A stretch of DNA of 59,542 bases, from the IMG/VR virus record IMGVR_UViG_3300030329_002202, positions 1 to 59,542 of that record. One strand, written 5' to 3'. This stretch comes from a virus (Duplodnaviria; Caudoviricetes). The notes beneath the pieces were generated by a model, which was not told the origin of the DNA, searched no databases, and was given only the letters and a program-made list of their open reading frames with translations. The position numbers and the translations under genes were made by a program. Of this stretch, positions 15,879 through 48,806 are shown piece after piece. The first letter of the stretch is position 1, and the number at the start of each line of letters is the position of its first letter.

Positions 15879-16529
15879 ATGAAGATACCAAAAAATTATT
15901 TTTTAGTTCAGGTTGAAAAACCATATGATGACACAATTGAATTTAATGGAAGAGAAATTACATTAGATATTAAATTTGACCCATATAAATTTGCTAGACA
16001 ATATGGTATTGTTTATGAGAATCCAGGATGGCTTCCAGAAGGTTTAGAGTTTGATGTTAAAAAAGGGGATAAAATATATTTTCACCATCTTGTTACAGGA
16101 GCTAAACCTGGAGTTACTATAGATAAAAAATTTGAGGATGAGTCTGGGCAGCAACATAAGAGTGCAAATCTTGTAGAGTGGGCAGATGATGAAAATGTGT
16201 ATAAAGTTCATTGGCAACAGATATATGCTAGAGTTAGAGATGGGGAGCTTAAAATGCTGCATCATTGGAATTTTGTGAAACAAAAGACTGAGTCTGAGGA
16301 TAGTATAAAAACAAAATCTGGAATCTTTATGAAACCTGAGGTTGAAGATATAACTCTACATGGAAATATAGTATATATGAACGATTGGTTAAAAGACCAG
16401 GGTGTTAAGATAGGAGATGAAGTTATATTTTCAGAAAACTCAGAATATGACATGAAAATAGAAGGAGAAAAACTTTTAAGAATGAGAAATGAAGATATAT
16501 TAGCATTATACAACAATGAAGGAAAGTAA
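15879..16529 (+). CDS. groES: GroES-like co-chaperonin with two GroES-like halves
   Basis: KTKSGIFM...GVKIGDEVIFSENSEYDMKIEGEKLLRMRNEDIL; N-terminal half has DVKKGDKIYF. Confidence 0.8.
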   Translation: MKIPKNYFLVQVEKPYDDTIEFNGREITLDIKFDPYKFARQYGIVYENPGWLPEGLEFDVKKGDKIYFHHLVTGAKPGVTIDKKFEDESGQQHKSANLVEWADDENVYKVHWQQIYARVRDGELKMLHHWNFVKQKTESEDSIKTKSGIFMKPEVEDITLHGNIVYMNDWLKDQGVKIGDEVIFSENSEYDMKIEGEKLLRMRNEDILALYNNEGK

Positions 16530-29200: not shown

Positions 29201-32200
29201 ATGCAAGATAAAAGGAATTTTCAAGGTGGACTTAACAGAGATGATGATGCCAGGGTTATGCCTGATGGAGATTATTTCTATGCCCAAAATATAAGAATAT
29301 TATCTTCTGAGGATAATACAACTATGCTTGTTGAAAATGTAAGGGGTACAACCAGTGAAACTTATTCAGAAGCAACATTAGGTTCTGCACGTGAATATAA
29401 AGTTATTGGTTCTTATGAAGATAAGAAAAAGGAGTGTCTTTATTATTTTATATGGAACGTTCAAGCATATCACCTTATATTAGAGTATAATATCAACACA
29501 GACACAATATCTACTGTGTATAGGGATGCAGGTGAAGAAATCAATAATGTTCTTAGATTTGATAAAAATACCCTTATAACAGGTATTAACAAAATTGATG
29601 ATTTATTATATTGGACTTGTGATAATACATATATAGACAATAAGGGGGAGCTTAGAAATAATGAACCAAAGTATATTAACGTAGAAAAAGCTAAAACAGG
29701 TTGGTCTGCTTATTACGCAAATGGAAATTACAATGCTAATCCAAGAACAGCATTTCCCATAGAGACATCTTACCCATTTGAGTTTTTCGCAGCAGCAGAT
29801 GGTTCAACTTATAGTCTTGTTGATTTTGAGCATAAATTAAAATATATTGATGTGTGTAAATATAAACCACCACCTCCAATATATAAAAACCAGACACCAA
29901 TTAGAAATGTATCTACCAGCCCTTATACACCAATAGGTCCTGTTGGACCAATAATTTTACAACAAACTATGCAATATGGGCCAGAAATACCTGCAAATGG
30001 TATAAGTTATTCAAATATACCACTTAGTCTAGTGGAGAGTAGGGACGAGTTAGAATTTGCTTATAAGAAAAATAATCTATATGGTCACGTTTGGCAGTTT
30101 GCTTATAGATATATATATAAAAACAATGAGCAAGGTGCTTATTCTGAATGGAGCTGGGTTCTTCCACCACCACAATATGGAACAAACATGGTGGATGAAG
30201 GTAAACAGAACTTATATAACGAAATAAGAGTGTGGTATCACAATGGGCCTGCTGATGTTGAGAAAATAGAGATAGTTGCTAGAAAGTGTTCTTATATAGA
30301 GACATCTCCAGATGAGGGTAATAAGGGTGAGTTTTACCTTATAGCAACTGTAGATAATTATTATTATGATTCAACATGGTCTGAAACTACTGATACTTCT
30401 GATACTGGTGGTCTATATTATGGCTACACATCTATGCAAAATGCAAACACTCCATATATAAATACTTACAATACAGATGGTTCAAGCACACAGCATCAAG
30501 ACCAACCAACAGGATATATAGATTTTAGAAACGATGGTGTGTACAGTCAAGTTGACCCTGTTGCTTTTGGAAAGTTGTTTGACCAGGTTCCTTTAAGGGC
30601 AAAAGCTCAAGAGATAATTGGAAAAAATAGATTGGCTTATGGTAATTATGTAGATGGATTTGACCAAGTAAAGCCACATTTTGAACTAATGCCTGAATAT
30701 GGAAATGAAATCCAGTTTACAATAATAAACCCAACAAGCGATAATAGTGATACTAATTGGTACACTTTAGGTGGTTCTAGTTTTGATGCTGGTATAATAC
30801 AGGAATACGATTTGACTGAAGAAAATTTTGGTGGTAGCACAAAACTTGGTGCTGACTCTATAAATGCCCACCCAAACTGGAATGGATGGATGTATCTCCC
30901 TGACCACCCAGAGATGACTTATGATTCTCAGGCACAACCAAGAGAGGCTCTGGCGATTGATGCGAGAGCTTTTCAATTACAAAGTATAATAACCTTTCCA
31001 ACAGTAGCACAGTTTGGTCAAAAATTTAGAATTAGAGTTGGACAGAAGCTTAGGTATAAGCAAGATTGTAAAGGTGCTTGGTGGCCTAATTATTTTAGTG
31101 ATGGATTTCTTGATTATAAATATTTTGGTTATCAAATAGATTTAGAAAAAACAGTAGGTGGAGGTGGAATACCTGCTCTTATTGATGAATTTATTGAAGA
31201 TATAAAAATAATATGTAACTACGACCAGGTGGCTAACCCCCCAACTATACCAGACTATAGAGGCACTGAAGAGACTAACCCTTACTGGGGAGAACCAATA
31301 AGACCTTATTGGAGGGGTAGTGATAGTTGCGATTCTGATTGCACTCCTAACTATGGAGATTGGGATGCTCCACTCCAAACATCAGCAGAGATGCATTTAA
31401 AAACAATAGAGAAGGTTGATAGTGATTTTGGAAATGATAATGTTATAAGAATGTTTTGGCACCCATTTGGACAAACTATAAGCGAAAGCACTGGTTACCC
31501 AAATGGTAACTGTTCTCAAAATTATCCAATAATATATTATAGAAGGTGTACTGGGGAAGAAACAACCAATCTACATGTTATGAAAAGTAGTAATGGAACT
31601 TATAGAGATTTTACTGAATGTGGTAGTTGTAATTGTTCATCAGGATACAGGACTTTTGACTGTAATGATTTTGCTTGTCAACCATGTGATTTTTGTTGTC
31701 GAGCTAAAGCTTGGGATGATACTGAAAGGTACATGCCTAGTGCTCCAGAGTGGCACTCTAAATTTACATATTCCCCTGCACTAGAGCAAGGAACTATATG
31801 GGAAGACTCAAATAACACAAATGATACATTAGAAAACAATATTAAAATTGTAGATGATGCATCTACTTTTAAGTCTGGTGCTTGGCATAGATTTGGTTTG
31901 GTTTATTATGACGAAAAGGGAAGAAGTTCTACTGTTATGTTAAATGAACCTACCCCTGCTGCCCCTGACAGAAACTCTTCTGTTTATGTAGCATTCCCAA
32001 CAGAAAGAAAATATAAGCAGTTTCTAGATGAGGATGGTAGTTTTAATTATACAAACAATGCATTAAGTAATGCAGAAAAACTACAACCTGCTGATATTGC
32101 GTGGAAGATATATCATAAACCACCTGTTTGGGCGAGGTATTATCATTGGGTATACGCAAGAAACTCTTCTGTTGGTGAGTTTCTGCAATTTATGATTGAC

Positions 32201-34885
32201 GCTGCTTATGTTAATAAAGGAGCAAAAGCTGGAACCTCCCAAGGTGAGGCAACTGCAGATTCAAAAATATACATATCATTAAACACAATGGATGGTAGAG
32301 ATTGGAGTTATGGAAATAGAAATAGGTCTCTTGTTGGTAAGTGGAGTTTTGCTGAGGGCGATAGAATAAGGATATTAACAGATTCTAATGGTACTGTAAT
32401 GACAAATCCTGATACAGATGTTCAAACATATTATGATTTTAAAATCAGTGAAGTTGGTCACTATCCTGGTAGGTTTGATTATGACCCAAATGCCCCTGAA
32501 GATATGGAGGATGGTAGGTCAGGTAAAGTTAAATTAAGTCCTGACTCCCCTGCTGGTGGTGAATTAAATCAACCAGCTAAAGCAAAACCTGGAAAGTTTA
32601 TTATATTAGATGACCCAAAAGTGCCAGGATATAATATAGACAGTGAGGTGGATGGTGAAATAACAAAATGGGCTGGGGTTAGAGTTGAAATATATAGGCC
32701 TAAGAAAAACACAAATGAAGAAGAAAGTTTATATTATGAATTTTCTGAAAGGCATGCTATAGTTGAACCTGGAACAGAAGCCAGAAGACATGCAGGTGGT
32801 GCAGGAGGGCAGGTTCAACAACCAGATGCTGACTATATAGCTGGAGACAATGTTGATTCAGACGTTCCTGCAACAGGTAGATTTAGGAGAGGTGATGTAT
32901 GGTATAAATCTAGGGACCTCAGCACTGCTGCTGTAACTGTCCCTGGTCAGTTTTTTGAAGATTATTTCTTAAACGACTTTATGCAAACTAATCATAATAA
33001 TATAGGTAGGCCACATATATCTAGTCCTTATGCTAAAGCTAAAAGAAGAGAGGCTACTATAACATATTCTGATGTATATACTCTTGACACACAATTTAAT
33101 GGATTGCATTCTTTTAATTTTAGTCAAAGACCATATATGGATTATGATATAACAAAGGGTTCTATACAAAAACTTGTAGCTACAGAAACAAACCTTGTTA
33201 TGATGCAAGAAAATAAATGTTCTACACTAATGATTAGTAAGAATATTATAAATTCTCCTGATGGAGATGCTGGATTAACACTATCTACAAATATTCTACC
33301 TGAAGAGCAGACTTACACAAGTGGTGATTTTGGTCCATGCTTAAACCCAGAATCTGTTGCTGTTCATGAACAGACAATATATTTTATAGATATAAGGAGA
33401 GGGGCTGCTATTAGAATAGGTGGTGATGGCATTACAGTCATTTCTGATTATAAAATGAAGGACTTCTTTAGAGACAAGATGGATTTATATGAAAATATAT
33501 TAGAATCCCAATATGATGATTTACTAGATGGTGGATTATTTATACTAGGTGGGTATGATAGGAGACATGGTGAGTATGTTGTCACATTCCCAAATGTTTA
33601 CTCAAACACTGTAGGAACAACAGATGAGGAGTTGGCTGTTTGGACAACTAGTGATAGGGATTTTGACACAAACTCATTAAGGGAAGATGGAGTTACAGCC
33701 CTCAACTTAAATACTGATGTGTTAAGAGACAACGTAAGAGATGCAATTTATGATGAAGATGTACCAATTATGATAAGAGATGGAGGTAGACGTGTCACAA
33801 TAGCAAACAAAGCTGAAACCATAGCCTTCAATGAGGGGGCTAATAAATGGACTAGCTTCTACACTTTTTACCCTGATTACTATGCGACATTAAATAGAAT
33901 ATTTATATCATTTAAAAATGGTATATTATACAAGCATGATTCTGACGCTACTAATCACACAATGTTTTACGACAATCCATACCCAGATGAATCCATAATA
34001 GAGTTTCCTTTTAATGGAGATGTTTCTTCTGTAAAAACCTGGAACAACTTAACCTTAGAGGGTGCAGATAAACAAGAGGTTATTCCACTTGTTAACACAT
34101 CTACAAATGGTGGTAACGCATCAGTGGTAGCTACAACAGGTAGTGCAAATATAGAGGCTACAAATATAAACTTCCAAGCAAACGATATAGCTGTTGGAGA
34201 TTCTTTATGGTATAACGATAATGGAACTCTTAGAACTTTAGGTGTTATTACTGCTATAACTGATGCAGACACAATTGTTACAAGTGTTGGTGAAGTTAAT
34301 GCTTTTATTGCAGCTAGTAGTACATCATCTGGAAATGCTTTATTTGATGTGTTTGTGATAACTGCTGACACAACAATGTATAAAGCAAAGTTTGAAACAA
34401 ATATCAACAGCTCTGAAGTAACACACAGAACATCTTATGAGAACACAGCTACAAATGCAGGAACTTGGGTAACAAGAGAAGAGGTTGCTAGCACACATAT
34501 ACCATTTGGTAATACAAACACATCAGGTGGAGAATATTTTGGTATTGGAAGCTGTACATGTGCTGACGATTCAACAACATTAACAGGTGCTTCGTTTTTG
34601 TCTGCAGGATTACAAAGTGGTGATATTATTTATTATGATAACAGTGGAACAGAAACCATAATTGGAACAATAGATAGTATAACTGACACTGTAATAACAC
34701 TAACTGGTAATGCTTCTGCAAGTTTAACAAATACATTTATGTTTGTTGTAAAAAATGCCTCAATAGATGGAGACAGGTTAAAGGGTCATTATATGTGGAC
34801 AAGGTTAACGAAAAGAACAAAAGATAAAGTTCACTTATTTGCTGCAAATGCAAATGTAATTAACAGCGAACTTACTAATAAATAA
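29201..34885 (+). CDS. Tail stabilization / muzzle-nozzle protein (P22 gp10 / crAss-like)
   Basis: N-terminal NFQGGLNRDDD..PDGDY.YAQNIR; VPLRAKAQE..NRLAYGNY; FGLVYYDEKGRSS; GPCLNPES; W.SFY.F.P. Confidence 0.8.
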   Translation: MQDKRNFQGGLNRDDDARVMPDGDYFYAQNIRILSSEDNTTMLVENVRGTTSETYSEATLGSAREYKVIGSYEDKKKECLYYFIWNVQAYHLILEYNINTDTISTVYRDAGEEINNVLRFDKNTLITGINKIDDLLYWTCDNTYIDNKGELRNNEPKYINVEKAKTGWSAYYANGNYNANPRTAFPIETSYPFEFFAAADGSTYSLVDFEHKLKYIDVCKYKPPPPIYKNQTPIRNVSTSPYTPIGPVGPIILQQTMQYGPEIPANGISYSNIPLSLVESRDELEFAYKKNNLYGHVWQFAYRYIYKNNEQGAYSEWSWVLPPPQYGTNMVDEGKQNLYNEIRVWYHNGPADVEKIEIVARKCSYIETSPDEGNKGEFYLIATVDNYYYDSTWSETTDTSDTGGLYYGYTSMQNANTPYINTYNTDGSSTQHQDQPTGYIDFRNDGVYSQVDPVAFGKLFDQVPLRAKAQEIIGKNRLAYGNYVDGFDQVKPHFELMPEYGNEIQFTIINPTSDNSDTNWYTLGGSSFDAGIIQEYDLTEENFGGSTKLGADSINAHPNWNGWMYLPDHPEMTYDSQAQPREALAIDARAFQLQSIITFPTVAQFGQKFRIRVGQKLRYKQDCKGAWWPNYFSDGFLDYKYFGYQIDLEKTVGGGGIPALIDEFIEDIKIICNYDQVANPPTIPDYRGTEETNPYWGEPIRPYWRGSDSCDSDCTPNYGDWDAPLQTSAEMHLKTIEKVDSDFGNDNVIRMFWHPFGQTISESTGYPNGNCSQNYPIIYYRRCTGEETTNLHVMKSSNGTYRDFTECGSCNCSSGYRTFDCNDFACQPCDFCCRAKAWDDTERYMPSAPEWHSKFTYSPALEQGTIWEDSNNTNDTLENNIKIVDDASTFKSGAWHRFGLVYYDEKGRSSTVMLNEPTPAAPDRNSSVYVAFPTERKYKQFLDEDGSFNYTNNALSNAEKLQPADIAWKIYHKPPVWARYYHWVYARNSSVGEFLQFMIDAAYVNKGAKAGTSQGEATADSKIYISLNTMDGRDWSYGNRNRSLVGKWSFAEGDRIRILTDSNGTVMTNPDTDVQTYYDFKISEVGHYPGRFDYDPNAPEDMEDGRSGKVKLSPDSPAGGELNQPAKAKPGKFIILDDPKVPGYNIDSEVDGEITKWAGVRVEIYRPKKNTNEEESLYYEFSERHAIVEPGTEARRHAGGAGGQVQQPDADYIAGDNVDSDVPATGRFRRGDVWYKSRDLSTAAVTVPGQFFEDYFLNDFMQTNHNNIGRPHISSPYAKAKRREATITYSDVYTLDTQFNGLHSFNFSQRPYMDYDITKGSIQKLVATETNLVMMQENKCSTLMISKNIINSPDGDAGLTLSTNILPEEQTYTSGDFGPCLNPESVAVHEQTIYFIDIRRGAAIRIGGDGITVISDYKMKDFFRDKMDLYENILESQYDDLLDGGLFILGGYDRRHGEYVVTFPNVYSNTVGTTDEELAVWTTSDRDFDTNSLREDGVTALNLNTDVLRDNVRDAIYDEDVPIMIRDGGRRVTIANKAETIAFNEGANKWTSFYTFYPDYYATLNRIFISFKNGILYKHDSDATNHTMFYDNPYPDESIIEFPFNGDVSSVKTWNNLTLEGADKQEVIPLVNTSTNGGNASVVATTGSANIEATNINFQANDIAVGDSLWYNDNGTLRTLGVITAITDADTIVTSVGEVNAFIAASSTSSGNALFDVFVITADTTMYKAKFETNINSSEVTHRTSYENTATNAGTWVTREEVASTHIPFGNTNTSGGEYFGIGSCTCADDSTTLTGASFLSAGLQSGDIIYYDNSGTETIIGTIDSITDTVITLTGNASASLTNTFMFVVKNASIDGDRLKGHYMWTRLTKRTKDKVHLFAANANVINSELTNK

Positions 34886-38039: not shown

Positions 38040-41000
38040 ATGAACGAACAAGCTTTAAAAGACGCATACGAACTATTTAAAAGTGGTGGTTATAATGGAA
38101 GTATAGAAGATTTTACAGGTCTTATAGCTTCTAACCCTAACGCTTTAAAAGACTCTTATAATCTCTTTAAAGGAGGTGGCTATACAGGTTCTCTTGAAGA
38201 TTACTCCACTCTTATTGGATTAAAAAAAAAAGTCGAAGGAGAAGCACCAGAGGGGGAAGTACCAGAAGGAGGGGAACCTTTGGATGTGGATGGTGGTACA
38301 TCAGATGTGGAAGATGGTGGTTTGGCCTCTTCAGAGATTGAGCAACCAACTCCAACAACTCCACAATATCAATTATTCCACAAAAATGGTGGTGCTACAC
38401 CAATAACTAGAAATAGAATACTTACATCTATCACTGATGAAGATTTCCTGTTAAGCTTGTCTACAAAAGAATTATCATTAAGCATAACAAACGATGACCC
38501 ACTGCAAGAGATGGTTAATAGTGCTATTGCTGGATATGAGAAAAAAATATCTGAAGAGGAGCCAGAGATAAGTCCATCAAATGAGTCTGATAGAATTAAT
38601 TATAGTAAAGCTGTAAATGAAGAGACTTTAGTTCCTTTATCAAAGGAAAATGACAGAATATCTTTAAACCCAACATTATCAAAAAATTTAGTAAACCCTA
38701 TAGTTAATGATGCATTAAGAGAGCTAAATGAGGTTTGGCTAGAAAATCCAGGGCTAAACGTTGAAAGCACATATAGAGATGAGGAATTAAATACCAGTGT
38801 AGGTGGCGATGTAAATTCTTACCACTTGCATGGATTAGCTATTGACCTTACTGGACCAAATGCTAAAAAGTTTCTAGAATGGGTAAACACAACAAAAGAG
38901 GGTAAAGCCTGGGCTGAAAAATGGACTGAGGGTGCTGCTGGTGGATTAGGGGTTATTTTAGAAGATGAGGCAGGTAAAGGTGAGCATGTTCATATTCAAT
39001 TTAAAAGAGGTCTCAGCACTGTAGCTAATCAAGCAACTGTATTACCATCTGATGGGTATAGTTCTGTGTCTAGGTCAAATGATGGATTAGGTGAGTATGT
39101 AGATGGAATGTGGGTTCCATCAGCAACAAGTCCAGTTGTTGATATTGGTTTTGATGATGATGATAGATTATCTTGGCTAGATAGAAGTGGTATAGATTTA
39201 GGTGATGGCGAAGATGAAGAAGAGGTGGTGGAAGGAGACGTTTTTGACCAAGACTCTTCATTTGAAACTTGGTGGGATGAAACCTTTGGGCCAAAAGAGG
39301 GAAGACACCATAGAAACACCCTTAATGATATTAGACATTTATTAACTGAACAGGAAATTCAGGATTTAAATAATATTATAGAAACATCTAAATGGCAAAA
39401 AGGATTTTGGGGATTTATGAAACACCCATTTAGGTGGCTTGGTGTGACAAATAAAGAGTTGCAGGAGGAGGGTTTTGCAGGGTTTAATGAAACCCAAGTT
39501 GCAAGAGCTTTTATCTATGATAAGATAATGGACAAGGTTCAGGCCCATATTGAGGGGTATTTAGCTAGTGGCTGGGAGCACCTTGGAAATCAAGTATATA
39601 AACACACTGAGTCAGGTGTTGTTATATCTCCAGAAAACACGCAAGGAAGACATCCACTTTTAGCATATTCATCTGCACTACCAACCCTTATAGAGAGAAT
39701 ACATAAAAACCCTGATTATCTTAATGTATTTGAGCTCAAGGAAGGTGTTGAAAATGGTGATTTACTAGCAGACAAGATAATGGAGATTTATAAGGAGTTT
39801 AATCCAGAGATGCACGAATATTATACTCAACAAATTGGAACAATGCGTGAGGTGTGGGAAACAGAAGTTGGTGATTATCATTTAATGATAGATGCAAATG
39901 GAGAGATAACAGATATGAGTGTGAAAGTGGGGAAGAAAAAGAAAAGGTATAAGGTGATAAAAAAAGACTCTAAAGAATTTAACAAGATAGCTCACCAGTA
40001 CCACTCAAATAGAGACGAATACCCCTTAAGGTATTCTACTGACATGATTGGACAAAAGCAGAATGAGTATGGGGAGGTTTCTTACGCAACTGATGAAGAG
40101 GGTGAGGGTTTTGAGAGAAAAAAGGTTTTAGAGGGTGAGTTAAAAGAAAGAGCTACAGGTTTTGTGCTAAATTCTCTAATGCCTATACTAGATTCTAATG
40201 AGAAAAATATGAGCAACAGTGGTGTTAATCAAAAAACAGCAGCATTAGGAGCTCAATTATCTGCTGGATTAGATTGGTTGGAAAAACAAGAATCTCTAAT
40301 ACGTGATTTTCCAAGACATGCTACTGGACAAGTAGATACTAGAAATATGTCTAATTCAGATATAGAGAGGTATAATCAATTAATTACTGACTATAATGCT
40401 TTTTTTAATGGCAGGTGGCAAGAACTACTAAAAGAGCATGAAATATTTAAAAAAGAAAATAGCGAGGTTCCTGAACACAGTACACTAATAGACTCATTTA
40501 ATAATGTTGCAGCATACTACCAGTCATTAGATGATGGTGAAGATGACTATGCTAGATATGTTAAAGCTATAAGAGCTAAACAAAACCAAGCTAATAAAAG
40601 TTTTGAAGAAGCAACTTGGGTAGGAAAACAAATTAGACAAGGGGCTGTAATAACAAATGACTTATTTAACACATTTGTTAGAAATGTTGCTGCTTCTCCA
40701 AGGTGGATTAAAGGTGTTTTTACTGATGAGAATATATATGATGGGGCAGATATGCTGGCAGACAATATTACTGCAAATTTAGATGCTAATACTTATTTTA
40801 ATGCGATGAACCCATCTTGGTCTCTTAAAGCTTCTCAATTAAATACAGAGGCTTGGGGAAAATATTGGTACACAGACGTTGAGGGAAAAAGGTTGACTTT
40901 TAATAAGCAGGGGCAAGTCACAAATATATTTGGAGATGATGGAAGAATTATTCAGCCTGGTTCTGATGAATATAAAGAAATTATTAGTGAGTATAATTCA

Positions 41001-44000
41001 AATCAAGATAAATACCCTATACAATACGATAAAAGGTGGGGAAGTGTTCTTTATAATACTGTTCATGCTGGTGGGGGTTTTGCCATAGACATGACAATAG
41101 GTAGATTGGCTATGGGTAGAGCAAAGGTTCTAGGATATGGTCAAAGGGGTCAGAGATATGCTTTCATGGGTGGTCTTTCTGGAGCAACTCACTTAAGGGT
41201 TTATGATGATTTTTATAGAGAGGGTTTAGACCAGGGTATGCTTCCTGGAGAGGCTACTGATTTTGCTTCTCAAGCATCATTTGTAACATCTCTTGTTGAG
41301 ATAATAACCCCTGATGTAGGTATGATTTCTGCTTCTGTAAGGGGTGGGGTTAAGAAACAGCTTAGGGATAAAATGATGGATAACATACAGGGCAGGGTTA
41401 CTACTAGTGCTGTTAATAGAGCATATAGAAAAAAAGTTTTAGGTAATGTAGCTTATTATGGGACAATGGAAGGTCTTGAAGAGGTTGGTCAACATTATGG
41501 TGTAGACCAAATAAAAGACAAGTATTATGGAGAGTTTAATTTCAATACAAATTGGGATTGGGACGTTGCTAAGGAAGAGTTTGTCATTGGAGCTTTATTG
41601 GGTGGTGGAACAACTGCTGTTTCAACATATACCTCTGGTAAAGACCATATAATGGGTGGATTATACAAAGAAGCGTGGTTTAATGCATACTTAAACCAAC
41701 AGGGTTATTATGACGCTTTAGATGGTATGTTAGGTAAGACAATGATGATAAATGGTTTAGAGGTTGAAATGACTCAAGCTAAAATAGATAAACTCAAAAC
41801 AGAAGGAAAATCTAAATTTGAAGCATTAAATAAAATATTAAAATCAAACAACGCAACCAACTTATCTGAATCTTCAAAAATGGAGATTATGCATCTACTA
41901 GAAATGAAGGGTTATGCAGAGGCTTTCCAGGGTTCCTTAGATGCAAATGAGAAAAGTGAAGCTGAGTTGATGATAAAGGAGACAGAGTCTGCTATTCAGA
42001 AAATATTAACTGGTCAAGATGTTGGTGATGCTTTATATACTTACTATGAGAATTTAGATGGAGGGGTTAAAGAATATTTAGGCAAGTATATGAAAGGGAG
42101 AGATGTTCCTTTTGGTGTTAAAGCTCTTATAAGAAAAATAGTTAAGGGAGAGTCTTTGACAGAAAGCGAGAAGGCAGCATATTTATCTTCTATAAACCAA
42201 GATATAACAGAACTAGATGCTAAGGAAAATTTAACAAAAGAAGAGAAAAATTACCTAAGTATATTAAAGAAATTAGAAAATGACGTTACTAACTTAACAA
42301 CTAAAAAAGATGAAACAACTACCACTAGAGATACAGGAAAGGCTGAACGAACTGCCAGAGGAGCTAAAGGTAAAAGTATTAGAGAAGCTATTGAAGATGC
42401 TGCAAACGAACAAGATAGAACAACCCTCAACCAAAACATTGGAAAACCAGTCTCCTACAAAGGAAAAAAAGGAATCTTAGAGAAAAATAAAAAAGGTGAG
42501 TTTATTTTAAAAACTCCAGGTAAAGGTAGAGGTATAAAAATAAAAGATGCTGGAACTGGTAGAAAAAGACTATCAACTGTAGGGTTGAAATATGAAGGTA
42601 AAACCTTATCAGTAACACCTAATAATGAATTAATTGTAGAAGGAGATAATAAAGGAGAGATTTTAGGATTATCTAAGGATACATCAGGAAAACTTGGTGG
42701 TGTTGTTATGTTAGATAATGAACAAAATGAATCTATAAAAAAGAAAGCTAGGGCAAAGTTCAGAAGACTTCAAAAGCAAAGAAATGAGGGAAAAATAACG
42801 CAACAACAATTCATAGATGGTATAAATAATACAGCAGGTTTAAGTATAGAATCTAATAATGAAATAAGAGCTAAATCAGCAGCAGACTTCCTTGTTAATT
42901 CAATAATTAACACTGGTAAAGCTGATGTTATAAGCATGAAGGATGTTGAGAAAATGATAAAAGAAGCTACAGAAGAGTCTGGTGTTGAAGAGCAGAAAAA
43001 AAAGGAAGAAACTAGTAGAAAAAAATCAACTACATCTAAAAGAAATAAGAGAAAGAAAATTAAAGAACAAAAAGTTTCTCCTGACCCACTCTGGGATAGC
43101 AGAGAGATGACTATTGAAGATATAGATGCATTAATAGCAAAATATGATAAATATGCTGGTGATGTTTATAAAAGAAAAGTTGCAGTTTTAAAAATAGTCA
43201 AGAAGCTGTATAATTCATTAGGATTTGATGTAACTGTTCATATGGATAGAGCACAGTTAGAATCTTACTTTTCTAGTATTGGTCAACCAGTGGTGACAAC
43301 AAGTAGAGGTATATCTTTTGAAGCTGGTTTGGAGGGTGCAACACCACAAATGCATATCAATCTAGATATTGCAAATCCTAATACAATGTTCCATGAGTCA
43401 GCACATCCATTTGTGACTTCATTACATAAGTTGGCTGAAACAAACCCAGAAGTTAAAAAATTACTTGCCAATATTAAAAAAGACCTAGGAAAAATAAAAG
43501 ATGGTTATTATATAAAATGGGCTAAAAAAGGATATGGTGTAGATAAAAATGGTTTCCCAACAGATAATGAGGCTGATATAGTTAATATGGATAAGGTTAT
43601 GCAAGAAGCTCTATCTGAGTTTTTAGCTGATGTAGGATTACAAAAATATGAAGATGACCAGTCTATTTTAGGTAAAGCTAAATCATATATTAAATCTATA
43701 GTAAAATACCTGTTTGGGAAAGATATAGGCACCCCACCATTAGAACTAACCTTAGAGGATTTAAGTAATTTAACAGACCTTGAGGGCGTTCAAAAGGTGT
43801 TTACTCAAGCTACATCACGTGGTTTAAATATAAACGAGAAATCAGAAGGAACAAACCCTATTGAAGCAAAATATCAATTGGCACCACCAGAAAACTCCTC
43901 TGAGTTTGAAGAATGGTTTGGCAATTCTAAAATTGTGGATAAAAATGGAAATCCTGTAGTGTATTATCATAGAACTAAAAATGAATTTGACGCATTTAGA

Positions 44001-47000
44001 GCAAATGTAATAACTGGTGAACAGCTTACTGCTTATGTGAGTCCTAGTGAGTCTTGGGCCAACGAGTTTATGGATATAATAGAGAGTGAAACATTACGTA
44101 AAGATAGATACACAAATCTAAGAACGATTCCTTTGTATGTTAAAGCAGAGAATCCATTTGATTTTAGAAATAAAGAGCATACAGATATGCTTTTTGATGC
44201 TTACGTAAAAGAATATGCTGGAGATTATGAGCTTGGGGGAAAAGAATATACTAGTCAGGAAAGGATAATTCCTCAACCAACTTTAGACGATAAGGTTGAT
44301 AAAAAAACTTTCTTTGATAGTCTTCAAAATAATGACAACTGGGCCTTAATTGAATCACATGAATATCTTATAAGTCAAATTCTAGGATTTGATTCAATGT
44401 TTATTAGTGAAACCAATAGGAGGGACGATGTAGAGTTAGAATCTGCAGTAAATCTAGCAGTATTTAATCCTCAACAACAATTAAAATCTGTTGATAGAAC
44501 AACTGACTTTGACTCACCTAAATACCAGTATGATATTAATGAGCAATTAGAAGCACATAATACTGGTGGTGGTTCAAGTTTTAATAATTTCTTTGGAAAA
44601 GTTGAAGGGGCATATGCTGCTGTATCTATATTTAACGATAGAAATAAGCAGATACCAGGAAACAAGCTAAATAAATCAGACTTAGATAGTTTTAGAAGTG
44701 AAAATCAATTTATATTAGACCAGCATGAATCTATAGTGGTGGGAACTTGGTATGATGAAGAAAACAACTTAATTGACCTAGATGTTTCTGTAGCTATACC
44801 TAAAGCTAAACTTGATGAGGCTATAAAACTTGGGGTGGAGTTTAATCAAAAATCTATTTGGGACCTAGAGTTAAACAAACCTATTCCAACAGGGGGAACA
44901 GGAAAGGTGACAACGCAGGATGCATCTAATCTACAAGAGAGAATAGATAAGATTAAAGAGATAGTTGGAAAATTAGACCCTAAATATCAAAGAAACATAG
45001 AGCTTGAAGGTAAACCTGGCTTCTCAACATTAAATAATGCTTTAAAATTCTCAACCATGTCCCATGGAACTCCTAAGCAGTGGATTAAGGAGATTAAAAA
45101 ATATGGTGGTAAAAATATAGATAATGAGATGGCATTTATGGGAATTAAAGATTTCTTAGAGTCTGTTGAAACATCTTATCCTGGTGGTATACCAAAAGTT
45201 GCTATAGAGGACTATATAGAAATGCACCAAACATCAATGAACTTTGATGGAAATACTATGAGTATTATGTTGGGTAACGAAACACTTGGTAATTTATCTT
45301 ATGAGCTAAAAACAAATGAAGATGGTGAGGTAGTTTTATTTATAAAGGATATAAAATCACCAGCAGACAGAATGATGTCTAATCTAGCTCCTATTATTAG
45401 ACACGTTATTAGATTTGCTACTGAACAAAATTATGATGCTATTGCTTTTGAGGATGGCTCTACATTTAAAGGACCAAAAGTAGAGTTCTTTAACAGCGTT
45501 GTGCCAGAGGTTATTAGTGATATATTATCCAGTATAGATTCAAAAGCTGGTCCAGTATTGACAGAGGTTGATGGTCAGGGAAAGGTTTCTATGGATATAA
45601 CCAACAGTGTATTATCTAATGTTCTAGATGTAACACTACCTAGTAACGATACAAAGAACAATGACAACTTCAACGAAGAAGCTAAGATAGCATATTCAAC
45701 AGACCCTAAATATCAAACATACACAACTTTTAATGGAATAAAAGACCTTTTTACAAACTTCAACCTAAAAAGAGAGTTTGCCCCAATGGGTAATATACCT
45801 AAAGAGGTATTTGACAAAGGATGGAGACATAAGTCTAGAATAAAGGCTGAGAAGTTTAAATTAATGAAGCTGATAGATAGACTTAGGGTTGCTATACAAG
45901 CAAACCAAGAAGGAGATAATCCTGTGTCAATAGAGGCTATAAACGAGATGCTATCTGACCCATCAGTAAAAATTCAAGAGTTAGAATCTTTAATAGAGAA
46001 TTATGAGCTCGATTTAGAGACCTTAGATAGAGATGGAAAGAGATATTTAGCTGGAGATGTTTTAAATAAAATAAGAGCTACAGAAGCTGACATAAAAGAA
46101 CTAAAAGAAAAAGCTGTTGGTAAGGCTAAAATGAAAGATTTAGATGGAGACCCTGAATTGCAAAAAATAATTAAACAAGTAAGAAGAAAAATAGATTCTT
46201 TTAGTAGAAAAATAAAAACCCTAGTCAACGATAAGTTAGGTATAACTATAGATAAAAATTTAGGAGTATACTTAAATAGACAGTATAGAATACATCACGA
46301 CCCTAAATATAATGATAAAATGATTAAGGTTATTGATGATATGATTAAGGCAGGTGAAAATCCAGTTAAAATAGCTAAAGTGATGAATAGGTTTAAAAAA
46401 GAATATGACTTAATCCAAGCTGCCTCAGTTGTTGTTAGAGAAGGTTTAGAGAAACACTACAAAGGAAGGGATGTTTCTGAAACAGCAGTTTTACAAGACA
46501 TAAGAAGAATGTTTCAAGATGGTCCTGAATCTAGTGATTTTGTTCAAGCTGTTAGAAGGTCTAATGATGTTAACACAGGTATTTTAAAAAAGAGAGTGGA
46601 TATGCCTGATGCTATAATGGAACTATTCTCTCCAGTAAAGAATCCATTATTTAATATAGTTAGTACAATAACTAAACAAGTGTCTGAAATGGAAACTATG
46701 GCTTTTAAAGCAGAGGCTGTTGCCATGTTAAATGGTTCTCTTCTGTTTGATAAACTATCAATACCACCTGGGCAAGAATCCTTATATAGTGAAGAGGTTA
46801 AATTAAAATATTCAGATGAGGTCTATTATACAACAAAAGAGATTAAAGAGTTTATTGATGGAGAGGTCTATGACCCATCTCTATTCCTTAAGAGTATGCA
46901 GAGAATTAATGGTGCTATTAAACTTGGAAAAACTGTATGGTCTTTTAAAACACACGCAAGAAACTTTATAGGTAATATGTATTTTGCATCTATAAATGGT

Positions 47001-48806
47001 CACTTTAATCCTAGAGACCTCATAGAGAGTATTAGAACGATGCAGAATTTATATAATAATTCAACAACACAGGAAAGAGAACAAATGTTTACAGCCATGG
47101 TTGAGAATGGTATTGTTGATGGTGTGTACGCAGATGAGTTAGCAGATGTATTAAATGATGCTCAACTTTCTAACATGGTGGAGGAATTTTTTGATTCTGG
47201 TTTAGATATGGAAAGTATTAAAAAGAGAAAACCAAATTTATTTAAAAGAATTAACAACTGGGTTAGTAAAACATATTTATGGGAAGATGTTGTTTGGAAG
47301 GGTGCTGGATTTATAAGTGAGATTAAATTATACGAAGATGCAGGCTTTGGTAGGGATGAGGCTATAGCTAAAGCAGCAGATAGTGTAAGGAATGGGTATG
47401 CTACATATTCTCTTGTTCCAAAACTTGGTAAGAGACTTAGAAGAATGATTCTTGTTGGTGACTTTATATCCTTCAACGCTGAGGTTATAAGAACAGGTAT
47501 AGGCTCTTTAATACAAGCTCAGAAAATGATTACATCAGGAAATAGGGTTTTATTCCAAGCAGGGTTAAAAAGAATTTTTGGAACCATATTTGCTTGGACA
47601 GCATTACCAACAATGTATACAGCTATGGCTGGTGGAATTGCTTCTGCTATATCTATGTTAAAAGACTGGAATGATGAAGATGATGAAGAAATGTCAAACA
47701 ATGATATAATGGACCATAAGCTAATGAATGGTGAAGAGAGAAGAATTGACCCTAACTTTATGTTATATGATAGCTATTCTGATTGGTACAATGCAACACA
47801 TGGTGCTGATAAATTCGAAGACCTTGGTATACCAGACATGACAAGAGATGAAATGATTCAACTATTTTTACCACACTACATGAAATATGGAGATGTTAAA
47901 TTAGTGTCAGCCAACAAGGATAAAAATGGTAATTTTGATGGAACTTATTACATATGGAACTCATCAGATAATCTATCTCAGAATTATTTTACAAGGATTT
48001 TAAGTGCAATATTCAACCCACCTGAAGATGACCCAACATGGAAATATCCTTCTAGATATATCCCACAGGTAAATGGAATACTTGATGACGTTCTTCACGC
48101 TATGATGGAGCCATTTTTAAGACAAAGTATGATGGTAAAAATATTGGATGAGTCTCTTTCTGGAGAAACCCAAGAGGGTAAAGACTTAAATGAGATTACT
48201 GATACTGGTATTGAGAGATGGGTAAACAGTCTTAAACACGCATTAAAAGAGGGCCAACCAGGTTTTTCTGAACAAATATATGATATGTTAGAAAGCTGGC
48301 ACCCAGACTTCTTTTTAGATGAAGACGAAATGCATAGAAGAAAAAGCCCTATCCATGAAACTATGGCACTAGGAGGGTTTAGATTTAGTAGATTTAATTT
48401 AGCAGAAAATTTAAATTTTAAAACCATATTTGTTGCTAATGTACTCACAAGACTAAACCCAGAAGAGGATAGTCCAAGAAGAATAAGAAAAGAGGTTAAA
48501 AGACATTTAACATATTTAGATAAACTGTGGTCGTACTCAGAATTTTTAGGCATAGAAGAAAATCATGTCATTGTATATGATAGAGAAAATGAGCCAATAT
48601 ATAATACCAAAACAAATAGAGACAATATTGTGGGTAAACACATTAAAGGCTTTAATCCTGGTAATGCTGTTTATGATTTTCTACACAGAGATAGGTCTGT
48701 TTTTCCTACATTTGATGACTGGGTTAAAGGAAGAGGGGATTTAGACTTTGCTGACTTTTTAAAAGACTGGCAAGTAGAAGAATTAGAAAAACAATTAATT
48801 GAATAA
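38040..48806 (+). CDS. Giant polyvalent virion protein (M15 peptidase, zincin peptidase, ART-like and further modules)
   Basis: 3588 aa; STYR...SYHLHGLAID...HVH; FHESAH; FEEWFGNSKIVDKNGNPVVYYH; helical C-terminus with THARNFIGN. Confidence 0.85.
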   Translation: MNEQALKDAYELFKSGGYNGSIEDFTGLIASNPNALKDSYNLFKGGGYTGSLEDYSTLIGLKKKVEGEAPEGEVPEGGEPLDVDGGTSDVEDGGLASSEIEQPTPTTPQYQLFHKNGGATPITRNRILTSITDEDFLLSLSTKELSLSITNDDPLQEMVNSAIAGYEKKISEEEPEISPSNESDRINYSKAVNEETLVPLSKENDRISLNPTLSKNLVNPIVNDALRELNEVWLENPGLNVESTYRDEELNTSVGGDVNSYHLHGLAIDLTGPNAKKFLEWVNTTKEGKAWAEKWTEGAAGGLGVILEDEAGKGEHVHIQFKRGLSTVANQATVLPSDGYSSVSRSNDGLGEYVDGMWVPSATSPVVDIGFDDDDRLSWLDRSGIDLGDGEDEEEVVEGDVFDQDSSFETWWDETFGPKEGRHHRNTLNDIRHLLTEQEIQDLNNIIETSKWQKGFWGFMKHPFRWLGVTNKELQEEGFAGFNETQVARAFIYDKIMDKVQAHIEGYLASGWEHLGNQVYKHTESGVVISPENTQGRHPLLAYSSALPTLIERIHKNPDYLNVFELKEGVENGDLLADKIMEIYKEFNPEMHEYYTQQIGTMREVWETEVGDYHLMIDANGEITDMSVKVGKKKKRYKVIKKDSKEFNKIAHQYHSNRDEYPLRYSTDMIGQKQNEYGEVSYATDEEGEGFERKKVLEGELKERATGFVLNSLMPILDSNEKNMSNSGVNQKTAALGAQLSAGLDWLEKQESLIRDFPRHATGQVDTRNMSNSDIERYNQLITDYNAFFNGRWQELLKEHEIFKKENSEVPEHSTLIDSFNNVAAYYQSLDDGEDDYARYVKAIRAKQNQANKSFEEATWVGKQIRQGAVITNDLFNTFVRNVAASPRWIKGVFTDENIYDGADMLADNITANLDANTYFNAMNPSWSLKASQLNTEAWGKYWYTDVEGKRLTFNKQGQVTNIFGDDGRIIQPGSDEYKEIISEYNSNQDKYPIQYDKRWGSVLYNTVHAGGGFAIDMTIGRLAMGRAKVLGYGQRGQRYAFMGGLSGATHLRVYDDFYREGLDQGMLPGEATDFASQASFVTSLVEIITPDVGMISASVRGGVKKQLRDKMMDNIQGRVTTSAVNRAYRKKVLGNVAYYGTMEGLEEVGQHYGVDQIKDKYYGEFNFNTNWDWDVAKEEFVIGALLGGGTTAVSTYTSGKDHIMGGLYKEAWFNAYLNQQGYYDALDGMLGKTMMINGLEVEMTQAKIDKLKTEGKSKFEALNKILKSNNATNLSESSKMEIMHLLEMKGYAEAFQGSLDANEKSEAELMIKETESAIQKILTGQDVGDALYTYYENLDGGVKEYLGKYMKGRDVPFGVKALIRKIVKGESLTESEKAAYLSSINQDITELDAKENLTKEEKNYLSILKKLENDVTNLTTKKDETTTTRDTGKAERTARGAKGKSIREAIEDAANEQDRTTLNQNIGKPVSYKGKKGILEKNKKGEFILKTPGKGRGIKIKDAGTGRKRLSTVGLKYEGKTLSVTPNNELIVEGDNKGEILGLSKDTSGKLGGVVMLDNEQNESIKKKARAKFRRLQKQRNEGKITQQQFIDGINNTAGLSIESNNEIRAKSAADFLVNSIINTGKADVISMKDVEKMIKEATEESGVEEQKKKEETSRKKSTTSKRNKRKKIKEQKVSPDPLWDSREMTIEDIDALIAKYDKYAGDVYKRKVAVLKIVKKLYNSLGFDVTVHMDRAQLESYFSSIGQPVVTTSRGISFEAGLEGATPQMHINLDIANPNTMFHESAHPFVTSLHKLAETNPEVKKLLANIKKDLGKIKDGYYIKWAKKGYGVDKNGFPTDNEADIVNMDKVMQEALSEFLADVGLQKYEDDQSILGKAKSYIKSIVKYLFGKDIGTPPLELTLEDLSNLTDLEGVQKVFTQATSRGLNINEKSEGTNPIEAKYQLAPPENSSEFEEWFGNSKIVDKNGNPVVYYHRTKNEFDAFRANVITGEQLTAYVSPSESWANEFMDIIESETLRKDRYTNLRTIPLYVKAENPFDFRNKEHTDMLFDAYVKEYAGDYELGGKEYTSQERIIPQPTLDDKVDKKTFFDSLQNNDNWALIESHEYLISQILGFDSMFISETNRRDDVELESAVNLAVFNPQQQLKSVDRTTDFDSPKYQYDINEQLEAHNTGGGSSFNNFFGKVEGAYAAVSIFNDRNKQIPGNKLNKSDLDSFRSENQFILDQHESIVVGTWYDEENNLIDLDVSVAIPKAKLDEAIKLGVEFNQKSIWDLELNKPIPTGGTGKVTTQDASNLQERIDKIKEIVGKLDPKYQRNIELEGKPGFSTLNNALKFSTMSHGTPKQWIKEIKKYGGKNIDNEMAFMGIKDFLESVETSYPGGIPKVAIEDYIEMHQTSMNFDGNTMSIMLGNETLGNLSYELKTNEDGEVVLFIKDIKSPADRMMSNLAPIIRHVIRFATEQNYDAIAFEDGSTFKGPKVEFFNSVVPEVISDILSSIDSKAGPVLTEVDGQGKVSMDITNSVLSNVLDVTLPSNDTKNNDNFNEEAKIAYSTDPKYQTYTTFNGIKDLFTNFNLKREFAPMGNIPKEVFDKGWRHKSRIKAEKFKLMKLIDRLRVAIQANQEGDNPVSIEAINEMLSDPSVKIQELESLIENYELDLETLDRDGKRYLAGDVLNKIRATEADIKELKEKAVGKAKMKDLDGDPELQKIIKQVRRKIDSFSRKIKTLVNDKLGITIDKNLGVYLNRQYRIHHDPKYNDKMIKVIDDMIKAGENPVKIAKVMNRFKKEYDLIQAASVVVREGLEKHYKGRDVSETAVLQDIRRMFQDGPESSDFVQAVRRSNDVNTGILKKRVDMPDAIMELFSPVKNPLFNIVSTITKQVSEMETMAFKAEAVAMLNGSLLFDKLSIPPGQESLYSEEVKLKYSDEVYYTTKEIKEFIDGEVYDPSLFLKSMQRINGAIKLGKTVWSFKTHARNFIGNMYFASINGHFNPRDLIESIRTMQNLYNNSTTQEREQMFTAMVENGIVDGVYADELADVLNDAQLSNMVEEFFDSGLDMESIKKRKPNLFKRINNWVSKTYLWEDVVWKGAGFISEIKLYEDAGFGRDEAIAKAADSVRNGYATYSLVPKLGKRLRRMILVGDFISFNAEVIRTGIGSLIQAQKMITSGNRVLFQAGLKRIFGTIFAWTALPTMYTAMAGGIASAISMLKDWNDEDDEEMSNNDIMDHKLMNGEERRIDPNFMLYDSYSDWYNATHGADKFEDLGIPDMTRDEMIQLFLPHYMKYGDVKLVSANKDKNGNFDGTYYIWNSSDNLSQNYFTRILSAIFNPPEDDPTWKYPSRYIPQVNGILDDVLHAMMEPFLRQSMMVKILDESLSGETQEGKDLNEITDTGIERWVNSLKHALKEGQPGFSEQIYDMLESWHPDFFLDEDEMHRRKSPIHETMALGGFRFSRFNLAENLNFKTIFVANVLTRLNPEEDSPRRIRKEVKRHLTYLDKLWSYSEFLGIEENHVIVYDRENEPIYNTKTNRDNIVGKHIKGFNPGNAVYDFLHRDRSVFPTFDDWVKGRGDLDFADFLKDWQVEELEKQLIE

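Follow-up and report, generated by a model that had tools for sequence, protein, structure and literature searches.

The window analysed here, positions 1 to 59,542 of the IMG/VR virus record IMGVR_UViG_3300030329_002202 (Duplodnaviria; Caudoviricetes), is a complete virus record of 59,542 bases with 34% G+C that encodes one giant open reading frame (ORF) of 3,588 amino acids (aa). In this protein a zincin-like domain and the three cassettes that follow it each end in a short motif whose last residue is glutamine, which we call a joint. We found that the joint motif is non-random, lies in unstructured linkers and is under selection at the level of the protein, and alignment with relatives showed that cassettes have been gained, lost and reordered exactly at the motif. 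The joints are putative processing sites that may be cut by the resident zincin-like domain, a reading to which we give a probability of about one half. The features of the ORF on which the argument depends are as follows, in window coordinates.

38040..48806, + strand: giant ORF of 3,588 aa, a putative polyvalent or virion cargo-type protein
43287..43865, + strand: zincin-like HExxH domain, ~aa 1750-1942, recognised by invariant ligand residues and the order of elements in an AlphaFold model
43866..43877, + strand: joint 1, AKYQ, aa 1943-1946, at the end of the zincin module (motif match)
43878..44528, + strand: cassette A, aa 1947-2163, ART-PolyVal ADP-ribosyltransferase (ART) module (Pfam PF18760)
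44517..44528, + strand: joint 2, PKYQ, aa 2160-2163, in the tail of the ART module (motif match)
44529..44990, + strand: cassette B, aa 2164-2317, predicted phage-specific domain that ends in joint 3 (confident AlphaFold model)
44979-44990, + strand: joint 3, PKYQ (motif match)
44991..45716, + strand: cassette C, aa 2318-2559, possibly GNAT-like, ends in joint 4 (AlphaFold model and Foldseek lead)
45705-45716, + strand: joint 4, PKYQ (motif match)
45717..48803, + strand: conserved C-terminal scaffold region of ~1,030 aa (PHROG 22602)

The joint motif in the window protein

An earlier note on this DNA had placed the motif [AP]KYQ four times in the region, and all four copies are where it put them, at nucleotides 43866, 44517, 44979 and 45705 (aa 1943, 2160, 2314 and 2556). 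KYQ itself starts at aa 1944, 2161, 2315 and 2557, always preceded by A or P, and the 3,588 residues contain no other KYQ and no other [KR][YF]Q. From the composition of the protein, 0.40 copies of KYQ and 0.035 copies of [AP]KYQ would be expected, and none of 20,000 composition shuffles had four or more copies of [AP]KYQ. An unbiased scan of 4-mers ranked PKYQ as the most over-represented in the window protein (3 observed, 0.012 expected), and the same scan of the relative P0006 ranked PKFQ first. The note had also pointed to an identical 15-mer, GACCCTAAATATCAA, at the last two joints; it is present in exactly two copies, at 44976-44990 and 45702-45716. This identity carries little weight, because under the codon usage of the ORF there is a chance of 0.08 that two independent copies of DPKYQ would share all five codons. 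A joint-like DPKYN, without the Gln, lies at aa 2754-2758 of the C-terminal region, with D2754 and Y2757 invariant.

Cassettes are exchanged at the joints

We compared the window with about 14 distinct metagenomic relatives; the searches gave six full-length close ones, further representatives, and loci from viral and metagenomic contigs. In BLAST alignments of the window protein to these relatives, the alignments break exactly at the KYQ positions; the modules that KYQ delimits align along their whole length, each directly next to the following one. For example, gapless abutments occur at 609/610 and 763/764 of L001 and at 1941/1942 and 2110/2111 of P0006. Six architectures are found between the zincin (pep) and module C, where B and C are the modules of the corresponding window cassettes and X1 and X2 are further modules of ~180 aa and ~333 aa for which no Pfam family was found.

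pep, ART, B, C: the window and P0003
pep, B, C: P0004/L002, P0005, L001 and P0015
pep, C: P0007, L018 and the divergent P0162
pep, B, ART, C: P0006/L023 and L008
pep, X1, ART, C: P0008
pep, X2, C: P0016/L004/L014/L020/L021, L005 and L006

Modules are thus absent, added or reordered among relatives with their breakpoints at the joints, and the suggestion of the earlier note that relatives might gain or lose modules exactly at KYQ is borne out. ART cassettes were probably inserted independently at different joints, since the ART of the B-ART lineages is only 28% identical to that of the window, compared with about 45% for the flanking modules. One break in the alignment to P0003, at ~aa 603-691, is not at K[YF]Q, as the four joints hold the only [KR][YF]Q of the protein.

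Collecting the joints of the family gave 42 from 15 proteins, with 28 distinct pentapeptides; the zincin-X1 joint of P0008 was not placed (EQYQ is a candidate) and is left out of this count. All 42 end in Q. The consensus is [DE]-P-K-[FY]-Q, of which only the final Gln is invariant. Numbering back from this Gln as P1, the pentapeptides have D or E at P5 in 16 of 28 cases, P at P4 in 13 (otherwise a hydrophobic residue), K at P3 in 22, and at P2 either F or Y in 13 or N in 7. At the position of joint 1, for instance, the relatives carry FNHQ, MKSQ, MSNQ, PKFQ, ANSQ, AKNQ, IKKQ or IKRQ. Both P0162 and P0027 have PKFQ at both joints, though their module C shares only some 20% identity with that of the window. 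The motif terminates five module types that are unrelated to one another (zincin, ART, B, C and X2) and hence does not belong to the fold of any of them.

AlphaFold models allowed a check on the placement of the joints, which the earlier note had set at boundaries between modules. Where the models are informative, at joints 2 and 3, KYQ falls outside the confidently folded domains: joint 2 is directly N-terminal to the confident module B, and joint 3 lies in a linker of 16 residues with a low predicted local distance difference test score (pLDDT) between two confident domains. In a model of module B, the terminal PKYQ is the only low-confidence block (pLDDT 59) and follows the last helix. Joints 1 and 4 lie within long low-confidence stretches and are less informative, because the ART module and its flanks are poorly modelled from a shallow alignment.

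Selection acts on the peptide

The exact exchange of cassettes at the joints, and the 15-mer that two of the window joints share, would also be expected if the joint were a recombination site in the DNA, working through microhomology or a recombinase and having no function in the protein. The earlier note had proposed a recombination joint as one meaning of KYQ; the exchange at the joints stands, but neither codon usage nor the degeneracy of the peptide gives a signal at the DNA level. For 24 joints with DNA, we compared the codons of the motif with those of the same ORFs. The Gln codons are CAA in 18 and CAG in 6 joints, as against 624 and 187 ORF-wide, and the Lys codons are AAA in 14 and AAG in 7, as against 1,692 and 508. 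At the joints, synonymous codons are used as in the ORFs as a whole, which indicates that the constraint is on the peptide and not on a recombination signal in the DNA. Furthermore, the motif decays in DNA and peptide alike (MSNQ, IQNQ) while the Q stays invariant, and we saw no nucleotide motif across the relatives stronger than the conservation of the peptide. Joint 4 retains its motif, with Q2559 invariant in 8 of 8 sequences of the full-length alignment, even though no relative varies in content there. A role in the DNA only is, in our view, very improbable.

The zincin-like domain

The earlier note had read an HExxH peptidase upstream of the cassettes, with FHESAH at 43392-43406 and EALSE downstream. 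HESAH (aa 1785-1789) does occupy those coordinates, while the F lies just outside them at 43389-43391; EALSE is present at aa 1856-1860, nucleotides 43605-43619. The residues H1785, E1786, H1789, E1856 and E1860 are invariant in all eight full-length family proteins and in the set A3, and the zincin ligand residues are kept in all relatives. In the AlphaFold model, strands are followed by a helix with HExxH and then by a later helix with EALSE, at a pLDDT of about 50-84. The predicted model therefore has the layout of a gluzincin, that is, an HExxH helix and a downstream Glu on a later helix. A fold search with a multi-domain model of 860 aa returned folds other than zincin.

A complex prediction for the zincin (A3, residues 30-226) with Zn and a 40-aa peptide of joint 3 returned 'no answer' with a score of 0.00, which is not evidence either way. 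V1792I, beside HExxHPF, together with a two-residue insertion separates the lineages that have Asn or Ser at P2. We did not use this co-variation of the zincin with P2 as evidence, as it is a single, phylogenetically confounded event.

Upstream of the zincin, a highly conserved Gly/Lys-rich segment has a weak, sub-threshold similarity to GH-E HNH/EndoVII nucleases at aa ~1571-1606 (window 42537-43319, + strand; E 2.8e-4, 21.9 bits, cut-off 25).

The cassettes and the C-terminal scaffold

Cassette A, described as ART-like in the earlier note, is indeed an ADP-ribosyltransferase module by its match to Pfam ART-PolyVal (PF18760) at aa 1967-2153, with an E-value of 4.6e-14 and 53.8 bits against a cut-off of 31.2. 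Aligned with the YHGT, xYF and YDG of other ART-PolyVal copies, H1977, Y1999 and D2118 fall at the H-Y-D positions. The H-Y-D triad has been described for the ART-PolyVal (Tox-ART-HYD2) clade (PMC5512222), and cassette A thus has both the family match and the configuration of the class.

Module B is a phage-specific domain with a confident predicted fold. Modelled alone, it reached a mean pLDDT of 89.8 and a predicted template modelling score (pTM) of 0.83, and the fold had no match in the PDB (best E 0.2). Its sequence had no Pfam match at E <= 0.01 (the sole match being DUF3293 at E 0.038), no PHROG match, and nothing among PDB sequences at E <= 10. In BFVD it matches 20 phage proteins at E <= 1e-3, all of them uncharacterised, and in the protein atlas only unnamed viral clusters. 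The matches include standalone actinophage proteins of ~120-140 aa, as well as domains in larger proteins annotated as XkdF or Zeta toxin. The label of S-adenosylmethionine (SAM) lyase-like that this module had been given in the earlier note finds no supporting sequence or fold match, and no SAM lyase is among the PDB fold matches listed.

Module C is found in every relative whose sequence reaches that region, and its AlphaFold model is confident across aa ~2328-2521. A Foldseek search with the full model of 860 aa gave GNAT acetyltransferases at E-values of 1e-3 to 3e-2, the aligned segment not being reported; there is no Pfam GNAT match to module C, and no Q/RxxGxG/A motif was found in it by eye. 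A GNAT-like fold is possibly present, and we treat the predicted similarity as a lead only.

The C-terminal scaffold matches PHROG 22602, 'virion structural protein', with an E-value of 5.9e-24. It is 25-33% identical to the same region of other giant proteins, which carry SNF2/methylase, RadC, ATLF-like peptidase, DUF3293 or ART domains. One distant relative, P0175, contains LNRAI four times (aa 483, 1975, 2486 and 3581), with LNRA and NRAI at 4 copies each compared with 0.107 and 0.075 expected, which may be a different repeated motif of another lineage.

The tail of ART-PolyVal in distant proteins

Joint 2 has a homologue in the tail ...PEQIKSAxGNxGxFDxxNPDIRFS of ART-PolyVal copies in distant polyvalent proteins, to which the sequence leading into this joint (FNPQQQLKSVDRTTDFDSPKYQ) can be aligned. 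The NPDIRFS part lies 6-10 residues past the end of the Pfam ART-PolyVal model, and in the alignment the K, Y and Q of joint 2 correspond to its R, F and S. P0018 has 13 ART-PolyVal stretches, each with a conserved tail, which is also present in P0023, P0031 and others. A set of 125 distant polyvalent proteins shows no enrichment of exact KYQ or KFQ (ratios 1.21 and 0.84), and P0027 is the only distant protein in which the joint motif flanks a homologue of module B. As judged from these alignments, in the family of the window protein the ART-tail motif is generalised to all cassettes.

Processing sites or linkers

On our reading, the 3,588-aa ORF encodes a polyvalent cargo protein that a phage distantly related to the crAss-like phages would package in its virion and deliver to the host. 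Starting at the N terminus, the protein consists of a predicted cell-wall peptidase, a long conserved middle, the zincin-like HExxH domain, the variable effector cassettes and the conserved scaffold of ~1,000 aa, with each module of the array, zincin included, ending in a [D/E]-P-K-[F/Y]-Q linker. The joints would be endoproteolytic sites with Gln at P1, and the resident zincin would cut them in cis or trans, either while the protein is in the capsid or once it is ejected. Effectors would be packaged by fusion to the scaffold and then released as separate enzymes. Release of domains by autoproteolysis was proposed on general grounds in 2017 for the zincins of polyvalent proteins (PMC5512222). 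That the effectors form an anti-defence payload, as the earlier note had it, is suggested by the same literature on polyvalent proteins (PMC5512222).

Several observations weigh against cleavage by the zincin-like domain. The HExxH domain has no sequence or profile match in Pfam, MPTase-PolyVal included, or in the PDB at E <= 0.1, whether searched by Pfam on the segment, by Pfam on six members of A3 or by a PDB profile search, and its AlphaFold model is of moderate confidence only. Many zincins select mainly at P1', and at the joints P1' varies widely, being Y, K, V, R, A, T, L or F. Fifteen relatives that share only the C-terminal scaffold have no repeated PK[YF]Q. A QIKS-like element lies upstream of 145 of the 160 D[IVL]R[FY] sites in 152 distant proteins, and the NPDIRFS tail there, which goes almost exclusively with ART-PolyVal, could be a structural tail of that domain. 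Lastly, the virion RNA polymerase (vRNAP) of phage N4, which has a zincin domain of this type, is packaged unprocessed (PMC5512222). These last two points would sit well with joints that are non-proteolytic linker motifs in a protein that stays intact, as would the view that the cargo of PhicrAss001 passes the tail partly unfolded (PMC10172136). Such motifs might contact a partner that organises the capsid cargo, punctuate unfolding and refolding during ejection, or simply be inherited from the tail of ART-PolyVal. However, the motif is common to five unrelated folds and sits in low-confidence, apparently unstructured segments, a single invariant residue in a drifting linker is typical of the recognition site of an enzyme, and no candidate partner is known. 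We regard an intact protein with linker motifs as possible but unlikely.

The joints might instead be cleaved by another phage or host protease, with the HExxH domain being an effector or having the cell wall or host proteins as its target. In favour of this, the combination of Gln at P1 and a variable P1' is familiar from 3C-like or chymotrypsin-fold viral proteases more than from zincins. The zincins of polyvalent proteins have also been proposed as effectors (PMC5512222). Yet no other protease family was found among 33 other ORFs of the window, scanned against Pfam (26), PHROGs (18) or both, with about 14 ORFs of at least 80 aa outside the scan. Among the ORFs, one of 401 aa between the portal and capsid genes gave sub-threshold leads only (scaffolding 0.83, Prp protease 0.81). 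Moreover, in all relatives the zincin-like domain lies directly upstream of the cassette array. We consider cleavage by a protease other than the resident zincin quite unlikely.

A bolder form of the preferred reading, cleavage by the resident zincin, is that the built-in zincin recognises the Q-terminated joints as a cleavage code, which would make the protein a phage counterpart of the MARTX toxins, and that polyvalent proteins of many other phages and conjugative elements use the same code in the form [K/R]-[F/Y]-[Q/S] (NPDIRFS after ART-PolyVal copies). This extension seems rather unlikely to us. If it were true, any effector carrying a joint could be slotted into a self-processing delivery polyprotein, and proteins with up to 13 tandem ART-PolyVal copies would be precursors of many separate enzymes.

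Genome context

Other features of the window bear on the kind of protein and phage involved.

38718..38900, + strand: Peptidase_M15_3 domain (cell-wall peptidase-like) in the N-terminal part of the giant ORF, aa 227-287 (Pfam PF08291)
29201-34885, same strand as the giant ORF: crAss muzzle-protein homologue of 1,894 aa (PF25731 crAss_MUZ)
15879-16529, + strand: ORF of 216 aa with a C-terminal Cpn10/GroES domain (PF00166, E 5.8e-11)
8616-11420, + strand: ORF of 934 aa (P0164), extremely basic and low-complexity, no family match

The PF08291 match of the giant ORF has an E-value of 6.1e-06 and 26.8 bits against a cut-off of 23.2, and the N-terminal peptidase region also matches the endolysin PHROG 894 (E 8.7e-07). 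The 3,588 residues thus hold several unrelated catalytic or effector domains (M15, HExxH, ART-PolyVal, B and C), as polyvalent proteins do. As for hallmark families of that class, ART-PolyVal is matched and the HExxH domain is without a Pfam peptidase match. No hydrophobic or transmembrane segment was found in the giant protein above a Kyte-Doolittle mean of 1.32 over 19 residues. Its extreme N terminus (aa 5-48; 38052-38183, + strand) consists of two tandem copies of ~30 aa with the pattern ALKDxYxLFKxGGYxGSxED.

Upstream of the giant ORF, on the same strand, lie genes for the large terminase, portal and virion structural proteins, as well as for a capsid protein of the SU10 type and a P22-like portal domain; structural homologues directly upstream on the same strand place the ORF in a virion or late-gene neighbourhood, as is typical of polyvalent proteins. 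The muzzle homologue matches PF25731 with an E-value of 5.7e-20 and 71.5 bits against a cut-off of 27, which is the mark of a Crassvirales-like phage. Two ORFs of 409 and 627 aa between the muzzle gene and the giant ORF have no family match. In PhicrAss001, the muzzle gene is followed by the cargo genes gp45 and gp46 and then by the giant RNA polymerase-associated gp47, gp49 and gp50 (PMC10172136); the virions were found to contain all five products, for which ejection is assumed (PMC10172136). Because the position of its gene and its size parallel this cargo block, the 3,588-aa protein is probably a virion cargo protein too.

As far as sequence can tell, kinship to the known crassviruses is distant, since neither the capsid nor the muzzle protein has a PDB sequence match, and the muzzle match in Pfam is the single link that points to it. 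The giant protein, searched whole, likewise had no PDB sequence match. Among deposited annotated phages no near DNA match to the window was found, and the sole weak protein match, 25.9% identical, was to a Pseudomonas phage protein annotated as hypothetical.

The ORF with the co-chaperonin domain sits just upstream of the terminase gene. In the 934-aa ORF there is a DPKYQ at aa 730-734; we considered it as a possible sign of a site cut in trans and treated it as chance, as it is not kept in relatives from two other phage records.

Comparison with known systems

Polyvalent proteins occur widely among phages and conjugative elements. They resemble the window protein in being giant multi-domain proteins of the virion block with ART-PolyVal, an HExxH zincin-like domain and variable effectors (Iyer et al. 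2017, PMC5512222); here a Q-terminated joint delimits every cassette and marks the points of exchange. Our text searches of the literature on polyvalent proteins turned up no account of such a motif, whether as a joint or as a cleavage site, although the supplementary alignments of PMC5512222 might show the tail motif of ART-PolyVal. A further difference is that the zincin of the window matches no Pfam family, MPTase-PolyVal included.

For the 2017 proposal of autoproteolysis, we found neither a defined cleavage site nor a test in the literature searched. The present family offers a concrete site that can be checked, P-K-[F/Y]-Q with an invariant Gln at each module boundary, and six cassette arrangements swapped exactly at that site amount to a natural experiment. 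With a defined site and natural cassette swaps, the autoprocessing hypothesis is directly testable. If cleavage does occur, the joints would give a plug-in architecture for phage-delivered effectors and would show how giant phage proteins are to be divided into mature products. The comparison also singles out module B as a phage-specific domain whose fold is predicted with confidence.

The T4 ADP-ribosyltransferase Alt and the internal proteins of T4 are matured by the prohead protease gp21, which cuts after Glu. Alt is packaged in the head and delivered with the DNA (PMC5512222), as we suppose for the window protein. It differs in being a separate gene product of the R-S-E clade of ARTs and not part of a polyprotein. 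The genes gp45-gp50 of PhicrAss001, like the giant ORF, lie downstream of a muzzle-protein gene (PMC10172136); unlike them, the giant protein of the window matches no PDB chain. A text search of the PhicrAss001 paper (PMC10172136) gave no occurrence of 'cleav' or 'protease'.

In viral polyproteins, too, short conserved junction motifs with Gln at P1 (putative here) stand between functional units. There the Q-terminated sites are cut by the 3C-like or NIa-type proteases of RNA viruses, enzymes with a chymotrypsin-like fold; no protease of the chymotrypsin-fold type was found in the window ORFs scanned. The MARTX toxins have a built-in cysteine protease that cuts after Leu in the linkers between domains and is activated by inositol hexakisphosphate. 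As we propose for the window protein, conserved delivery regions flank modular effectors whose content differs among strains, and the protease releases the effectors after entry (PMC4453568, PMC5218395, PMC6315884). MARTX proteins are toxins secreted by bacteria and carry a cysteine protease domain, whereas the protein described here is a putative phage virion protein with a zincin-like domain and Gln joints, and the comparison is one of analogy, with no sequence relationship. The window protein is a member of the polyvalent class with a new feature, the Q-terminated joints, and if these are indeed cut it would work in the manner of MARTX toxins and viral polyproteins.

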